Translations under genes and position numbers: made by a program | Part shown: positions 4,174-33,490 of the stretch, one piece after another | Position numbering within the stretch: the stretch's first letter is position 1 | Layout of the letters: every line of letters begins with the position of its first letter | Notes under the pieces: generated by a model | Seen by the model: the letters and a program-made list of their open reading frames with translations, nothing else | What the model was told of the DNA's origin: nothing | Database searches by the model: none | Assembly: GCF_963921235.1 (NCBI RefSeq) | Contig: NC_086097.1 | Span: 146,694,001 to 146,758,000, forward strand | DNA length: 64,000 bases | From: Mobula hypostoma | Taxonomy: Eukaryota | Reading direction: 5' to 3'

Positions 4174-5378
4174 TCAATCTTTCCAGAGTATGAGTTTTTC
4201 TAGTTCATCTTTCGGCATGATGTGTCCTAGGAATCTGAGTTGTCTTTCTCTTATTGTTGGTATGAGTGATCGAACTGCTTGGGCTCTTCTGAGAACTTCT
4301 TCATTTGATGTGTGTGTGGTCCATGATATTTTTAACATTCTCCTGTAGAACCATAATTCAGCTGCTTCTAGTCTCTTTTCCATTGCTGGAGAAATGGTCC
4401 AGCATTCACTTCCATAAGTCAGGATAGAATAAATGTAGCACTGCAGTATTCTGTTTTTAGTGTACATGCTCATCTTTCTGTCTGTTAATATGGTCTTCAT
4501 TTTTTGGAAAGCTTCTTTCACCATTGCTATTCTGTATTTGATATCTCTGTTGCACCTGCCATTACTTGTTATTAGGCTGCCAAGATATTTGAATTTGTTG
4601 ACTTGTTCAATGTTTGTATTTCCGATCTTGATCACACATTGTGGGATGTTTGTCTTTCTGGAGATGACCATGCTTTCTGTCTTCTTGGTGTTGTTTGAGA
4701 GGCCTCTGCAATTACTTTCTGCTGCTACTATAGTGAGTAGTTCTTGAAGTTTTGTTTCTGAGTCAGCTATTAGTACAATGTCATCAGCATATCTGATGTT
4801 ATTTATATTATGGCCTCCAATTGCGAATCCTTTGATGTCTTTGATACTTCTCAAGATATTTTCACTATACAGGTTGAATAAGTCTGGCGAAAAGACACAA
4901 CTTTGCCTGACTCCTCTCATGATATTCACATACTCACTCACTTCTCCTTCTATTCTGATGGATGCTGTCTGGTCCCAGTATAAGTTTCTTAAGAAACGTA
5001 TATCTTTCCCATCTATGTCAAGATCTTGAAGCATTTCCAGAAGATCTTGCTGTCTGACAATGTCAAAAGCTTTTGTATAGTCAATGAAACATAGGCAGAT
5101 GTCTTTTTGTACCTGGATGGCTCGTTCACAGATCATCATGAAAATTGCATTTCTGGTTCCAGTGTTTTCCACAAAGCCGCATTGTTTTTTACTGATTTCT
5201 GGTTTTATACAGTGTCTTGCTCTCATCATGATTACTCTGAGAATAATTTTTGCCACTTGGCTCATCAGGCTTATTGTACGACGTAACTCACCTTCTGTTG
5301 CTCCCTCTTTCTTTGGAAGTGTGATGAACACTGATTTATTTAAATCATCAGGTATCTTCTCATGATCATAGATTTCAT
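4174..5378 (-). pseudogene. RTE reverse transcriptase domain (open frame; the annotated N-terminus is chimeric with the CR1 insert)
   Basis: About 400 open codons with non-LTR RT motifs including YADD; the first ~28 aa of the ORF-track protein come from the inserted CR1. Confidence 0.9.
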
Positions 5379-5786
5379 AGATTTCAATGAGGGGAGACCT
5401 CATAGAAACATTTTGAATGTTGAAAGGCATGGACAGAGTGGATGTGGCAAAGTTGTTTCCCATAATGGGGGAGTCTAGTACGAGAAGGCATGACTTAAGG
5501 ATTGAAGGGCGCCCATTCAGAACAGAAATGCAAAGGAATTTTTTTAGTCAGAGGGTGGCGAATCTATGGAATTTGTGGCCACGGGCAGCAGTGGAGGCCA
5601 AGTCACTGGGTGTATTTAAGGCAGAGATTGATAGGTATCTGAGTAGCCAGGGCATCAAAGGTTATGGTGAGAAGGCGGGGGAGTGGGACTAAATGGGAGA
5701 ATGGATCAGCTCATGATAAAATGGCGGGGCAGACTCGATGGGCCGAATGGCCGACTTCTGCTCCTTTGTCTTATGGTCTTATGGTC
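5379..5786 (+). mobile_element. 5'-truncated CR1 3' end inserted in the RTE
   Basis: ORF 5417..5692 ends RNFFSQRVANLWN (CR1 ORF2 C-terminus); tail ttatggtcttatggtc; probable TSD TTCAT at 5374-5378 and 5787-5791. Confidence 0.92.
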
Positions 5787-7787
5787 TTCATTTGCTATTT
5801 CTGTTACTTTCTCTATTCCAAAATCTTCTAAGGCCAGTATCATTTCAACAGCAATGTTGTCTGGACCAGTTGCTCTGTTATGTTTTGTTTTATTTACGGC
5901 TGCTCGAATTTCTGATTTTAGAATGCTAGGTCCTTCAAGATTCTTCTTTATGTTTGGTTTTCCTCCTCTTTGGTCTTCAAAAAGTTCTTTTATATATTCT
6001 GTCCATCTGTCTAGGATTTCCTCTTTGTTCATAATTAAGCTGCCATCTTTTGCCTTGATGCATCCACTTGCTGAGAAAGGTAATTTCCCTGTTAGTTCTT
6101 TAATCTTATTGTGCATCAACTTTGTTCCAGGGTTATGGGTTTGTAGCATTTCTATCTCTGAGCATTTCTCATTTAGCCATCCGTCTTTAGCTTCTCTGCA
6201 TTTTCTTTTTATTGTCTTATCAAGTTGTTTGTATTCTTTGCTGTCTCTTAGTTTGATGGTCTGTTTTTGTTGCATCAATTGTATTATATCTTCAGTTATC
6301 CGTTTCTTCTTAGTTTTCCGTTCTTTTCGTGGGATGGTTTCTTTTGCAGCTACAACCATGGATTCCTTCAGTATGTCCCAGGAAGATTTGCCTCCTTCAT
6401 CCTGCAGCAATTGAAAACAGTTTTTCACCTTGATTGTGTATTCTGTTTTCAGATGAGGGTTGTTTTGTAGTTGTTGATAATCCAGTGGTTCTGATCTTTT
6501 TGGTTTCTTTAAATTTCTCATCTTTATTTTCATTTTGCAAATGACTGGTATGTGGTCACTTCCACAGTCTGCTCCAGGGTAGCTCTTAGATTGAGTTATC
6601 AGGTTTTTGAATCTGTTATTGATTGTTATGTAGTCGATTTGATTTTTGTTGTTCCTATCTGGGCTTCTTCATGTCCATTTCCTTCTTGGATGTTGTTTAA
6701 ACCAAGTGTTGGTGATTATCTGATTGTTTGTTTTACACCATGATATAAGCTTTTCTCCTCTTTCATTTCTTTCTCCCAATCCCTGGTCTCCAACAATATG
6801 GTCTTCTCTTCTCTCACCAACTTTTGCATTGAAGTCACCCATAACTATGATGGCTTCTTGTGATTTGCATTCTTCTAGTGCTTTGTCTAGGGAGTGGTAG
6901 AAGGCATCAATTTCCTCCTCTGAGCTTTCCATTGTGGGTGCATATACCTGGATGATAGAGATGTTGTTTTGTTGTCCTTTTAGTTTGATTAGCATCATTC
7001 TGTCTGAGATATGCCAGTATCCTAGCAGGCTCTTGGATGTTTCTTTGTCTAACGCTTTTCATGTTTACCTCCACCAGAGTATATCATCTTGTCGTCGTCT
7101 GATTGGAATACTCCAGTGCCTTTCCATTTTATTTCACTTAGGCCTAGGATGCTGACTTCTAGCCTCTTCATTTCTAATTTTATGCTTTCTAGCTTACCAG
7201 GGTTCGAACATTCCAAGTGGCAATTCACAGTCTCTTGTTCTTGCAGACAGTAGTGGTATGACAATCCGGGCTCACCTGTCTGTCTACATGATATCCCGTA
7301 CCGAGCGAGGTGTCCGCACTATTTGGAAGTGGGCTGCCATTTACGCTGTTGTCTGTGTGTATTAACCATGGTTGTACTAGGGATAAGATACAAGAAGTAG
7401 CTTCCCCTTGCTTGCTTCCGATGCAGTGTCTTTACAAGATGGGTGACCTTGACCATTGTCCTGTTAAAGGATCTACTGCTCAGCATCTGAGAAGCAGGAA
7501 CCATCGATGGTGTTACTCACAACTTGCCTTCTGCTTCAGCCACCACCTGCATTCCGTGGCTTCACTGTAACCCAAGTAGGGAGGCTAACAGGTGCTACAC
7601 CTTGCCTAAGGGTGACCTGGAGGTAGCTGTGGTTAATGGTAATCTCATTACCCAAAGCAAATGCTCCACAGCCGGATGTAGTTTATCCTCATACCCAGGA
7701 GAGGGAAATACAATAGGTTAATTAAATATCCTTCTTTACATTCATTGAGCCATCAAATCAATGCATTCTATTTACAATGTACCAATA

Positions 7788-26800: not shown

Positions 26801-29323
26801 GACTAGATCCATTAAGCTGCAAAAACTGTCTAATTTACAACCTTGAGCCACTCCATTCTAATTAACTGTGACTTATACTCAAAGTGCAGAGTGCAGAGTG
26901 CTTATGTTGGGTAAGTCCTCATGAAATTTCTGCTTCTTATCTGCTCGGTGAGCAACACATTGCTACTCCTGGAGTTTACTCCCTCTGCTGCTACTTTAGG
27001 TCCGGCTGACTCTGGTAGTCTACATGGTACTCATCTGAAGCTCCAATTAATTGGCATCCTTGCTTATCTGAAAACTTGAAACTAATGAACCTCCAAGCAG
27101 TAGAAGACACCTCCAATATGTAAAAATTCACTTTACATAACACTGCAAATAAATCCTTGCATGCAAACAAGTAATAAAATAACTATGAACATCAAACTAC
27201 CATGTTACCAATTGCTTCAATTTCCACTGTTTTTGGGCCTTATTTTCCTCAGGAAAATTTCCTCATGGGTCTGTGATCCGCGGACACGAAATTATATTGC
27301 AAATAAACTTGCTGAGCTGAAGTTTATTTCCTAGGGCTGTTAATCGACCTAAGTGTAATGAGGAGATCAGCAAGTTCAAACCAACGTCTCCCTTTCCTCT
27401 CTCCTCTCCCCTCAGGATGCAAGCCCACTTTTCATTTATGTTAGATTTCAACACTTTTAGTCAGATAATATATTTCCTTTAACATCTCCACAACTAGTGT
27501 TGAAATGACAGATCAGTTATATAACTCTTTCTACCTCGCTTTCCAGGTAAGTGAGTGACATTTGCAAATTCCCAAACCAATCATATAATCTGTGAATCTG
27601 GAAATGTTTGTGAAAGTCCAAATAGTGTAGTATCTCATCTATTTCATCTTTTAATACTCTGAGGGAACAAGTCAGGTCTTCAAAACTTATGTCTTATCAC
27701 TTTTCCATCAATCTAAGCTACTGGTGAGGCAACGTACACTTAAGTGATTATGAACTGCAAGAGGTTAATCAGAGATAAGAACTGGAGGTGACATTAAAAA
27801 AAATTTGCAATTTGTTACAATCAGAATACAGTACTATGATTGTTAGTTCCCAGAAAGGCATTGCCTTGATTGTAAAATTCTCAGTTTCATTACCAAAACG
27901 TCTATTTGATGGTTGAATCTTCCATACCAGGATACTTTAAAAGTCGTTCTCCTGTTTATCTTGCATGAAACATCTAGACGTACTGCCTGTATCATATTTA
28001 TATTTTTCTCTTTCTGTTTTCTTAGCATCTGTAAGATTAATTGCCTTACCACCTACAGCTACATTTTATCTTTCAAGGGCAGCAACATTTCTAAACGTTA
28101 CTGCTTGACCAACTGTCTTTCTGCCCTTTAAGTTACTCTTTAGCCCTTTTCTTGGTCATCTTGTCTGACACCTTGTCATCTACCTAAAATGTTGTGAAAT
28201 TTTGCTTCCTGAAAGCAGCTTTGGCCATTTTCTTATTTTAACTTTGTCAAATAACTATGAATTCCTAATGTTGATGATCCAGAAATCACAGTGAAAGAGA
28301 ATTGGGTATAAATTATAATAAATTAAAAGGGAACTGGATAAATAGTGTATTTGAAAAAAATTAGAGTTATGGAGAGAAAGAAACAACATAGTTGTAATAT
28401 TTGTCTTTTGTGTCTTTCAAAAAGGTGACCCAGGTAAAATGGGCCAAAGAGCTTCCCTCTGTGTTACACCATGCAAGGATTCCACAAAGTATTCTGCTGA
28501 AGCATGGAGCAATTTTGGCAATGCAATCTCTTATCATTCTGATAAATGGTGCATTTATTTTAAGCGAAGGTCTCATTCATATGCTACAAAGACTTATTCA
28601 TCATTGTTTACAATGAGCAGCTTGATTAATATGTTCCATCGTCCTTGCAAATTGTCAAAATATAAAATTAAAACATGGTCCAATGTTGCATTTAGAATGA
28701 ATATTGTAGTGTGATTTAGGTGGAAAAAAGGATGAGAAAATTTTGAATGTGCAATGTATCCTTGAGTGTTTTTGTCAGTTAGCTCTTTATAGCAACATGT
28801 ACTGAGTAAACTACTTGTAGGTAGGGTCTCTGTGCAAGTACTTTTTGGATGTACTAGTACTAAGGATGGCCCAACAAGTCTCATGTTTCTGATTCCTGAA
28901 AATAAGCATTACTATTCACTATTTGTCTAAACCTACGAAGCAGAATGCTCCAGGTTTGAAGGAGAGACAAGAGATTACAGATGCTGGAATCTGCAGCAAC
29001 AAATAATTTTCTAGAAGATTTTGATGCAGAGTTTCAACCTGAAAGGTGCACAATCCTTTCCTATTGTAGGAGCCTCGTATCTATTTTGTGTTGTGCATTT
29101 ATTATGGGTAATTTGTCACATGGGTTGGGGCGTGGGAGAAGTAAAGAGTATAGTTACATATTCATTCTTTGTTTTTAGTTCAGTCTTAGTCTGGTTAGAG
29201 TAGGGAGTGAGTTGGGGGATGTTTTTTCGTTGAACGTTTAAGAACGCTTGACATTTAAATTTGATAATGCTTAAGTACATTTGAATATGCTTAGACTACG
29301 TATCTCGTTACATCACTTGTTTT

Positions 29324-31838
29324 TGTCATGATCTGGTCCGTGAAGGTCGCATTCCAGTTCATTGTCGGGTCCATCAATCCTTGTTCTGGGTTTTCCTGTT
29401 TTCTCCCTTGTTCTGTTGGGTGCCTTAATTGAGGCACCTGATTCTCATTTCGGGCTGGCACATAAATACCTCTGCAAACCAGGGATTGTTTCTGGAATGT
29501 TCCCTCCCCTTCCTTTTCAAAACTTCGCCTGAAATCTTCACCTGCAACCTCGTCAGTATCCCCGTCAAGTTCAACCGCCGGAGTGAGACTGGAGCCTTGC
29601 CACGCCAAGATAAGGAACTATCTATTGTTGAGTTGGAACTATCTCTTTGGGTCCCCGTGTTTAGTGTTCATGTCAAAGAAGAGTCCCGGCCCTAGGTCTT
29701 GTTCCCTTGGAGGGGTCCTGACTCTATGTAAAGCCCCGGCCCTAAGTCCTGTTCCCAAGCAGGGGTGATGGCTCTGTGTTCTGTGTTCCTGTGTTTCAAG
29801 TTCATGGTGCTGTGTTCCAGTCCTGTCCAACTCAAGGCTTCGTGTTCTCGTCCAGTCCAGGAGTCCCTCGGCAGTCATCCCGGCCCCGCTGGAGATTCCT
29901 CACCCAGCCCAGGAGTACCTCTCTTGTCCTGTGCTGGAGTTACTTCGTCCTGTCCAGGCCACGTCCAAGAAGCCCGTCCTGTCCAGGCCACGTCGAAGAA
30001 GCTCGTCCTGTCCAAGCCACGTCAAAGAATCTCGTCCTGTCCAAACCACGTCCAAGAACCTTGTCCTGTCCAAATCATGTCCAAGAACCTCGTCCAGTCC
30101 AAGCCAAGGTTTTGTGTTCTCGTCCTGTCTATGTGCCTCGTCCTGTGCAGGAGTTCCATGTCCTGTCCTTGGCAAAATCCTAGTCCCAGCCTAGACCCGG
30201 GTTCCGATTCTGAGTCCCAACCAAAACCCAGGTTCCAGGTCCTTGTCCAGGCTCTGCTTCCAGAGTTCTGTGTTCCTAGTCCAGGTTCCTCGTTCCTAGT
30301 TCCCCGTCCGGGTCCCATGTTTCTAATCCAAGTCCTATCCCAGGCCCTGAACCCTAGTCTCGTCCAGGGCCTGTGTCAATGTCCAGCGTCGTTTCTTCCA
30401 TTGCGTTCTTGACAAAACTAGTCCTGTTCCTAGTACCTTAGTGTCTATTTCTTGCATTTGGGTCCACCTTCAGTGTCCACTTAAGACAGAACAGTCCAGT
30501 CAGGCATGGACCCAACAACACAGACACTGTTGTATTACTCTTGCCATCCTGGGTTCCCTCCTGTTGAATGCCCCGTGTTGTCCATAGTCTAGGGAAGCCT
30601 TTTGGGTTGCCAGGAGGCTCCCATAGAGGGGGGCGGGGGTGATACTGTCATGGTCCGGTCCATGAACTCCGTATTCTGGTTCACTGTCAGGTCCATCGAT
30701 CCTTGTTCCGGGTTTTCCTGTTTTCTCCCTTGTTCTGTTGGGTGCCTTAATTGAGACACCTGATTCTCATTTTGGGCTGGCACATAAATACCTCTGCAAA
30801 TGAGGGATTGTTTCTGGACTGTTCCCTCCCCTTCCTTCTGAAACCTTTGCCTGAAACCTTGTCAGTATTCCCGTCAAGTTCAACCGCCTGAGTGAGACTG
30901 GAGCCTTGCCACACCAAGATAAGGAACTATCTATTGTTGAGTTGGAACTATCTCTTTGTGTCCCCGTGTTTAGTGTTCGTATCAAAGAAGAGTCCCGGCC
31001 CTAGGTCCTGTTCCTTTGGAGGGTCTTGACTCTGTGTAAAGCCCCGGCCTTAAGTCCTGATCCCAAGGAGGAGTCCCTGTTCTGTGTTCTGTGTTTATGG
31101 CACCGTGTTCCAGTCCTGTCCAACTCAAGGCTTAGTGTTCTCGTCCAGTCCAGGAGTCCCTCGTTCAGTCCACCTCGGCAAGTGTCCTCGGCAAGTATCC
31201 TTGGCAGTCATCCTGGTCCTGTGTCCTAGAAAGGGTCCTGGCCCTGCGCTCCAAGGAGGAGTCCCACCTCTGTACCCAAGGGCCTAACTGAGCCGAGCTA
31301 AATCTAGTCCAAGAGCCACGTCCTGTGCTGGAGATTCCTCACCCAGCCCAGGAGTACCTCCCTCGTCCTGTGCTGGAGTTACCTCATCCTGTCCAAGCCA
31401 CGTCCAGGAACCTTGTCCTGTCCAAGCCACATCCCAGAACCTCGTCCAGTCCAAGCCACTCGTCCTGTTCTCGTCCTGTCCATGTGCCTTGTCCTGTCCT
31501 GTAGCCACGTCCTGTCCTTACCAAGATCCTAGTCCCGAGTCCTAGGCGAGACCTGGGTTCCGGTTCCGAGTCAAGACCCAGGTTCCGGGTCCTTGTGCAG
31601 GCTCTGGTTCCGGAGTTCCGTGTTCCTCATCTAGGTTCCTCGTTCCTAGTTCTCCGTCTAGGTCCCGAGTTTCTAGTCCAAGTCCTAGCCCAGGCCCTGA
31701 ATCCTAGTCTTGTCCAGGGCCTGTGTCAATGTCCAGCGTCATATCTTCCTTTGCTTTCTTGACAAACCTAGTCCTGTTCCTAGTACTTCAGTGTCTGTGT
31801 CTTGCATTTGGGTCTGCCTTCAGCGCCCCCTTATGACA
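29324..31838 (+). mobile_element. Non-autonomous two-LTR retroelement (Gypsy, Tf1/sushi-like) with 157-bp internal region
   Basis: LTR1 29324-30488 and LTR2 30646-31838, both TG...CA; 5-bp TSD GTTTT at 29319-29323 and 31839-31843; polypurine tract agaggggggcggggg just before LTR2; internal region starts gaacagtccagtcaggcATGGACCC. Confidence 0.93.
29945..30105 (+). repeat. ~29-bp minisatellite inside LTR1
   Basis: About 5-6 units of cgtcctgtccaagccacgtccaagaacct; about 2-3 units in LTR2 (~31385-31460). Confidence 0.9.
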
Positions 31839-33490
31839 GTTTTAGTTTTGTTAGTATTTTTATTGCTAGAAGGTTGTTTGTCTTTGCTGGTTTCTGAATA
31901 AAGGAACAAACATACTTTCTTTGACTTAGAACTTAATTATTGTAACAAGTCATAACCTTCCGTGCCTGGTCTCTGAGTGGTTTTGGTTTGTCTTAAAGTA
32001 AACGTTACGCCTATCACAGAGGCTGTCCAACCTGCCGAGTTTCTCTGGTGGTTTGTTTGTTGCTGCAGTTTGACCAATGTTCTGTGCTCAGCTAGCTGAT
32101 TTAATGAAGTGTGGACTGGTTGTGAATAAGAAAATTACCAAGTATGCTCTCTCCTGACTCTCATCCCAGCCCGAAAGCATGAAGTCCACATAGACAGCAG
32201 TGGATTTGACTATGATGTTTGATGCTTTCCATGGCCTAACAGCTGATCAAGATTATCTAATTATATTTTGAATATGAGCTGGCTCAGGAAGAGTCAGCAG
32301 GATGAAATATTTGATATCTTTGTGCAGAGTCTTCACCTGCTGGGAGTGCACATCAGAAATCTGGGAGGTTTCCAGAATCCCCATTGTCTGTTCTCATTCC
32401 CATTTTATTTCATCAAAATATTATAATGAAATATTTCATAGATTAAATATTATAAACTTAGAAAGAGGAAATAAAATGGAATCTAGAAAAGCTCTTGCTT
32501 TGCTGCACTCCATGCTCGTGTCTGTTAAAGAAATTCAGGGTTTTATCAGTCTTTAATACTACATCTAATTGCACTGGTTACCAATTCAGGACACAATGAA
32601 TGTGAAGTGTTTATGGATAAGATGTTCCAACTTGAGGCAGATGTCAGCCAGTGACTCAGAGTGATTCTGGTAAAAATTTTCACGTAATAAAATATATTTC
32701 AGGGGTAAACTTTTTACCCATCCATATTCAGACTTGAGTATAATTTGCTGACTATTACAAAGATGAAGGGAAACTAGACTTTTGATGGATGTACAGCAGA
32801 ATTATGAATGCAGCAACATCGGGCAGCTTACAAAGATAAATATGGCTGCAAATCCATTCTTATCTTGAAGCTCAAGTTTCCATGGATACCACATCACCCC
32901 TCCACCCATCCATCACAACATTTAATTACTGTGTTCAAAAGGACAGTAGATCTGTAGAAGAGGCAGAATTGTATATGGCTGTGTTACTCTCTATGCTTCA
33001 ATATCCTTCGAATGTGGCATTTGAAATTAATGATTTTCCCTTCATTTTTTTCAATACAGTACCATACATTAGTGAGGGTTAGTATCTTTTTCAATAGAAT
33101 GCCAGCAAAGGCCTTTAAGATCATTTGCTTTCACATTTCAATGCATTATTTTCTTGATGATCCAGTTTTGCCACTGCTACCAGGGCTGCTTCCAAATCGA
33201 AGGCCTCAAGAAGCTAAAGGTAGCAGGTGACAGCTACACTTGACACATTTCCTCAGGTGTCGTCCTGACTTGCTGTATATTATCATTCCACCAAAGGTAT
33301 AGTGCCAAAAACTTGGACTTTGTGGACAAGTCTTCAACACACGGCAGTTCAAGAAAGCAACACATTGTCTGCTTGTGACTTATGACAAGGGAGCGATGAC
33401 AAGTAAATAAGCAAAATAAGACATGTGAAACTGTACCAAAAAGATGATTCCTATGACTATAAAGTATTCCACTGAACTATTCATCCAGAC

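Follow-up and report, generated by a model that had tools for sequence, protein, structure and literature searches.

The gene-less element at positions 29324-31838 of the 64-kb window (the whole stretch of DNA analysed here) is one copy of a dispersed LTR retroelement family. We assign a probability of roughly 85% to the reading in which this family, which carries the gag start and the chromodomain tail of sushi elements, was likely copied and integrated in trans and was likely self-primed.

Structure of the element

The features of the element and of its insertion site are as follows.

29319..29323, + strand: left target-site duplication (TSD) GTTTT, a perfect match to the right copy
29324..30488, + strand: 5' LTR (LTR1; TGTCATG...AAGACA), 1165 bp
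29461..29468, + strand: TATA-like motif cataaata of the 5' LTR
29492..29502, + strand: predicted self-primer of the 5' LTR, 10/11 against the primer-binding site, with one substitution that is likely post-insertion
29945..30106, + strand: tandem array of a 29-nt unit (5.6 copies), within the expanded central part of the LTR
30440..30466, + strand: LTR-end arm of a predicted outer stem (partner 30507-30528)
30489..30499, + strand: primer-binding site (PBS) GAACAGTCCAG, without a TGG start
30506..30592, + strand: gag-derived ATG stub, 28 codons, out of the gag frame after codon 4
30507..30528, + strand: second arm of the predicted outer stem, inside the gag stub
30595..30645, + strand: remnant of the integrase-chromodomain tail plus polypurine tract (PPT, 30625-30639)
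30646..31838, + strand: 3' LTR (LTR2; TGTCATG...ATGACA), 1193 bp
30783..30790, + strand: TATA-like motif cataaata of the 3' LTR
30814..30824, + strand: perfect 11-nt PBS complement in the 3' LTR
31839..31843, + strand: right TSD GTTTT

A preliminary description of this locus had reported the TSD, the two LTRs, a 157-bp interior, a primer site, an ATG stub and a PPT, and all of its coordinates hold. The interior (30489-30645) occupies 157 bp of a 2515-bp element, the LTRs of which match at 976 aligned positions and differ at 127 (88.5% identity). Recomputation also agrees with the earlier claim that the PBS lacks TGG and has an exact complement in one LTR and a 10/11 version in the other, each about 30 nt past a TATA-like motif. 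Within the 64-kb window, GAACAGTCCAG has a single exact reverse complement, at 30814, and the chance expectation for such a complement is about 8e-4 per LTR; the LTR1 version lies at 29492, and the cataaata motifs at 29461 and 30783 precede the 11-mer by 31 nt in both LTRs.

No Pfam match was obtained for the gag stub or for the four LTR open reading frames scanned, and no Rfam match at E≤0.1. By the Pfam scan the element encodes no gag, pol or chromodomain, and holds only short homologous remnants of them. The polyadenylation signals AATAAA and ATTAAA are absent from 29324-31838 and are present in only 1 of 21 3' LTRs of the sister subfamily A2 (described below). Elsewhere in the window, a decayed LINE with Pfam matches to reverse transcriptase and endonuclease occupies 4174-7058 on the minus strand.

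A multi-copy family with its own insertion sites

The host genome, 3.48 Gb in size, contains an exon resembling the CDYL chromodomain of the PDB, consistent with a vertebrate, and its repeats may be those of a cartilaginous fish. A junction search of this genome gave 40 scored matches from 1801 candidates, and the 30 loci fetched, including that of the window, all have an interior of 154-177 bp. Both ends were placed in 16 of the 30, with 12 perfect TSDs, two TSDs with one mismatch, one tandem element and one misplaced end. Exact patterns gave 111 matches in total, falling into two sister subfamilies: A1, taken by an exact PBS plus ATG pattern (38 matches, all fetched and overlapping in part with the junction-search set), and A2 (73 matches, 30 fetched). 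The interior measures 152-188 bp in 32 of the 38 A1 copies and 159-183 bp in 29 of the 30 A2 copies, that is, 152-188 bp in 61 of the 68 fetched; the other six A1 copies comprise four read by eye as having the same short interior, one with an insertion and one with a deletion. None of the 68 contains gag. Perfect TSDs flank 21 of the 29 copies with both ends placed (10/14 in A1, 11/15 in A2). A deletion unique to this locus, which the preliminary description had named as a refuting case, is contradicted, as the short interior recurs at many loci with their own TSDs. Two LTRs, a PBS, a PPT, no coding capacity and many insertions with individual TSDs place the element in the broad class of non-coding LTR elements.

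It might be argued that every copy inserted as a complete sushi element and only later lost its interior, with no trans-mobilised mini family at all, given that the interior shows homology with the gag start and the pol end of coding elements and that internally deleted coding copies do exist (locus L162). However, the same junction of ~165 bp, together with a one-base gag deletion, is found at dozens of loci with different TSDs, no sampled copy with this LTR and PBS carried gag, and identical breakpoints at independent insertion sites contradict post-insertion loss, which we regard as extremely improbable.

The dispersed family is probably old and inactive, to judge from its LTRs. Identity within LTR pairs is 84-95%, with medians of 0.90 (A1) and 0.91 (A2), and as the maximum is 0.947, no young copy was seen. 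Solo LTRs form the majority of 30 matches to an LTR 3' end. At least 10 clusters of adjacent PBS matches 1.1-3.5 kb apart were counted by hand among the first 100 matches listed, and three-LTR tandems occur at L024 and L186/187; tandem mini elements with common LTRs appear to be frequent (G000 contigs C9, C21, C32, C36, C40, C45, C58 and others). Tandems of Tf1 are reported (PMC11042837) to arise through recombination at copies already present. A contig of run X5 (organism B) spans the 5' junction of the element in the window, and the insertion is therefore common to organism B. One X9 contig ending at 29318 was considered as an empty insertion site in another organism and was rejected, as no joint was seen on re-examination.

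Complementarity of primer and primer-binding site

The primer column was fixed by aligning LTR heads without reference to the PBS, and G-U was counted as a pair. Defined in this manner, the primer pairs with the PBS at a mean of 10.3 of 11 positions and at 10 or more in 54 of 61 copies, whereas sliding the primer column by 1-3 positions gave means of 2.6-4.9 and no copy with at least 10. In 52 of the 62 LTR heads aligned, the primer is preceded at 30-31 nt by an (A/G)TAAA motif. A PBS complementary to an LTR segment behind a TATA motif, the hallmark of the Tf1/sushi group, is what we find here.

The two sides also change together. In A1 the PBS GAACAGTCCAG is accompanied by the primer CTGGACTGTTC, and in A2 the PBS GAAC(A/G)ATCCAG by CTGGATTGTTC. 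At pair 6, copies with G in the PBS (n=33) have primer C in 24 and T in 9, and those with A (n=29) have primer T in 26, C in 2 and A in 1; the change amounts to two label changes on the tree, about one evolutionary event, and the Fisher P of 1e-7 therefore overstates independence. The PBS words of coding families are GAACGATCTGG, GAACGAACTGG and GTACA(A/G)TCTGG. A strict TATA regular expression missed most coding LTRs, and primer sites there were found by pairing instead: an LTR site with at least 9 Watson-Crick pairs lies 237-434 nt upstream of the PBS in 15 of 19 coding elements (one of 20 being without a PBS call). In a further gene-less family, C (see below), an LTR word matches the PBS at 9 pairs in 3 of 4 copies. 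When seven family motifs were set against one another in a 7x7 cross table, the own primer paired best or tied for each. Covariation of primer site and LTR site, suggested as a check in the preliminary description, is present between subfamilies and between families.

These data bear on the proposal that the family, while non-autonomous, was primed in trans by a host tRNA fragment or another RNA, the LTR complement being an inherited relic. There is precedent in fungal Helenus TRIMs, which excerpts of PMC10886601 describe as using tRNA anticodon loops, and the 5' part of tRNA-Lys(TTT) (nt 3-13) pairs at 8/11 with the A1 PBS and 9/11 with that of A2, this being the one tRNA type compared, as the genome search yielded tRNA-Lys(TTT) only, in 9 distinct sequences. 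Nevertheless, the PBS has no TGG, the LTR site matches at 11/11 and tracks PBS changes across subfamilies and families, and across A1 and A2 the primer columns are conserved at 0.90 versus 0.66 and 0.71 for their neighbours; we consider this proposal improbable. By analogy with Tf1, the element likely started reverse transcription with the first 11 nt of its own RNA and not with a tRNA. A dense tRNA gene array was encountered at G000:C90:4.02-4.33 Mb (L228-L251), and all genes read in it are tRNA-Lys(TTT).

Folding of the leader

The LTR end (30440-30466) is predicted to pair with the old gag start (30507-30528), enclosing the PBS. This outer stem was assessed in 52 of 91 available rows, namely the window copy, 19 of 38 A1, 10 of 30 A2, 18 coding and 4 family C rows; the model was drawn from one of these rows, and in mini copies its 3' arm was already set by the search patterns. 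Paired cells amount to 85.1%, versus 82.6±0.4 in shuffles (0/500 as high), and double changes to 19, versus 10.6 (2/500). Of the five measures, two did not exceed the shuffles, namely the number of covarying pairs (188/500) and the number of pair types (419/500). Examples of compensated pairs include TGAGTCC/GGACTCA, TGGATCC/GGATCCA and TGGGTTC/GAACCCA. Gag codon 4 is one base short in 30/30 family A rows and has that base in 22/22 coding and family C rows, and the stub is therefore out of frame; it was likely kept as an RNA structure and not as a reading frame.

Whole-leader folding of 11 leaders placed the primer:PBS helix in the minimum-energy fold of four, the window copy not among them, and most folds without this helix show the outer stem in whole or in part. 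The two helices cross, and the folding program cannot display both together. With respect to the 'pretzel' of Tf1, the central duplex and the duplex 3' of the PBS are supported, the outer stem of the mini element corresponding to one flanking duplex, whereas the third duplex is not clearly present in the mini element and appears only as a 4-bp extension in 3 of the 11 folds, those of A2 leaders.

The distance between primer and PBS, ~1 kb in the mini element versus 237-434 nt in coding elements, and the presence of the helix in only 4/11 minimum-energy folds could be taken to mean that the self-priming fold exists and yet that priming was intermolecular, from a co-packaged helper or sister RNA. 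Typical coding-family primers, however, pair at 5-8 of 11 positions with the mini PBS motifs versus 11 for the own primer, and a helper primer therefore fits poorly. An intermolecular primer from a sister mini RNA is possible; intermolecular priming as a whole we hold to be very improbable.

Were the element to have primed from its own RNA, as we favour, the transcript would begin ~30 nt behind the TATA motif, by analogy with Tf1, and its first 11 nt would anneal across about 1 kb to the PBS, which would sit in a loop closed by the ~22-bp stem that the LTR end forms with the former gag start. A helper RNase H would then cut after nucleotide 11 to leave the primer, the PPT would prime the plus strand, and a helper integrase would insert the DNA with a 5-bp TSD. 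Comparable steps are described for Tf1 in the portion of PMC7175516 available: bases 1-11 anneal to the PBS, and RNase H cleaves between bases 11 and 12. The enzymes were likely borrowed from sushi-type elements.

Coding relatives and the search for a helper

Gag-anchored elements of the same genome show the Pfam domains Retrotrans_gag, DUF4939, RVT_1, rve, Integrase_H2C2, SH3_Tf2-1 and Chromo. Alignment of the mini interior with the first ~75 nt of these elements scored higher than 200 shuffles in 4 of the 6 tested; with their final ~50 nt, which comprise the GKPGGSPGGSR chromodomain tail and the PPT, it did so in all 6, in one case marginally. Homology at both interior ends thus shows descent from chromodomain-bearing sushi-type elements. 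One coding group has the same chromodomain tail and the same LTR start TGTCATGGTCC as the mini family and, by its ends, would be the best helper candidate.

An autonomous partner with the same LTR, as the preliminary description had envisaged, was not found among the sampled loci. Pattern searches for a coding element with this LTR gave 0 and then 6 matches (two A2 minis and four family C). In 30 gag loci searched for a shared LTR body, three had LTR homology and none was an autonomous partner; 20 longer gag-anchored stretches, eight of which extend loci among the 30, had only 29-80-nt matches to the mini LTR, and 70 of the 150 chromodomain loci listed from 2256 candidates had only 32-74-nt matches. 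At L075/L131 the homology is a solo LTR inserted backwards in the LTR of a coding element; the A2 solo LTR at L131:5418-6435 lies reversed in the 5' LTR, a few bases behind the coding element's own primer site. The near-identical loci L086 and L087 (G000:C116 and C151) contain a truncated A-like LTR piece followed by chromodomain tail, LTR, PBS and gag, a layout suggestive of tandem coding elements with a common LTR, the LTR-like piece being a candidate nested insertion. A 'pol' similarity at L129/L131 was set aside, since by eye it looks LINE and not Gypsy. In the loci sampled, what the mini family shares with coding families is the termini, gag start and tail, and not the LTR body.

Family C is a second gene-less, long-LTR family (L218:904-3249 reverse-complemented, G000:C50 near 40.85 Mb; also L219-L221). 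Its LTRs are ~1 kb long and its interior, of 303 bp, looks non-coding; one of the four copies is complete and has a perfect TSD. The PBS is GAACG(A/G)TCTAG, the matching LTR word lying about 0.9-1 kb upstream. Because it keeps the gag base lost by family A, it may be a separate derivation.

Relation to known elements

Self-priming is given as a common trait of the Tf1/sushi group (10.1101/2022.12.06.519325 and PMC6317226, in the parts available); in the texts consulted, it is demonstrated for yeast Tf1 only and deduced from complementarity for vertebrate sushi elements. As in Tf1/Tf2 of Schizosaccharomyces pombe and the sushi chromoviruses (sushi-ichi, Tj1, Tosmo1-3), for which PMC7175516 notes in the same portion an 11-nt LTR segment complementary to the PBS, the mini element has such a segment; its 5' terminus fits the Sushi motif TGTYANR (excerpted from PMC3601003), and the coding relatives found in the same genome have an integrase with a chromodomain. 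Unlike that group, the mini element lacks gag, pol and chromodomain, has no AATAAA near the LTR end, and has LTRs of ~1.1 kb versus ~0.4-0.5 kb in most coding relatives here, with tandem repeats expanding the primer-PBS stretch.

With TRIMs, including the animal biv-TRIM, Helenus and Ajax, the element shares two LTRs, a short non-coding interior, PBS, PPT, TSDs, solo LTRs, tandem arrays and presumed trans-mobilisation. The earlier label 'TRIM-like' stands in this broad sense and not in the strict one, as the element is 2.5 kb long with ~1.1-kb LTRs. A strict TRIM is described in the text seen of PMC6934838 as shorter than 1 kb, its terminal repeats being 100-250 bp long and its PBS complementary to a tRNA, whereas this element measures 2515 bp with LTRs of 1165 and 1193 bp, and its PBS, compared with tRNA-Lys(TTT), starts with GAAC and not TGG. 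Vertebrate Helenus primes with tRNA 3' ends according to the PMC10886601 excerpts, unlike an element whose PBS is without TGG. By length it falls within the undefined 1.5-4-kb 'long-TRIM' range (PMC13570524, in part). On sequence grounds, the element is best viewed as Tf1/sushi-like without genes, being neither a strict TRIM nor an autonomous group member.

Our full-text literature search, in the portions of text it returned, contained no vertebrate non-autonomous self-priming sushi derivative; the family may already be listed as a non-autonomous Gypsy in Repbase/Dfam, in Butler et al. 2001 or in the primary papers of Levin. Self-priming and TRIMs are each already known, and what appears to be new here is their stripped-down vertebrate combination.

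A possible primer-copied base in A2

Opposite a U of the A2 primer, the PBS has either G or A. The dinucleotide at this position of the A2 PBS, counted by hand in the first 100 of 119 matches, is CA in 51, CG in 36, TG in 12 and TA in 1. As a control, 16 CpG columns in 29 A2 copies (one further, pattern-fixed column was dropped) gave CG 268, CA 97 and TG 73 of 438, and the PBS excess of CA over these columns has P=7e-4. The CA and CG labels are unclustered on a 28-row A2 tree (229/500 shuffles as low; L206 and L199 omitted), and no tandem pair mixed the two states. The figures are no more than suggestive of ~40% of A2 copies having arisen with a PBS base taken from the self-primer; the mixture also fits two source lineages on a poorly resolved tree. 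Templating was not supported in a counter-check clade with primer T6 in 6/7 3' LTRs, where the PBS has G6 in 8/10 copies (seven AG, one GG) and A6 in 2/10; the primer reads C6 in one of these two A6 copies, and none was obtained for the other. L292 also has PBS A6 with primer C6.

A more sweeping proposition is that at least two gene-less long-LTR lineages, with interiors of ~165 and ~303 bp, kept only the self-priming fold, that the gag start became a structural stem while the primer-PBS loop grew to 1 kb, and that A2 preserves a fossil of primer copying. We offer this tentatively, considering it somewhat more doubtful than probable.

Significance

A gene-less family of this kind displays the parts needed in cis: termini, primer, PBS, the stem of LTR end and gag start, and PPT. 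The mechanism is supported, without experiment, by compensatory changes that have arisen naturally in both helices. If the broader proposition is true, it would provide genomic evidence, for the first time, that self-priming and the templating of the PBS from the primer do occur in vertebrate sushi elements. Repeats of this class would escape both tRNA-PBS-based and size-based TRIM finders, and, since the family looks old, it matters for mechanism and annotation and not as an active mutagen.
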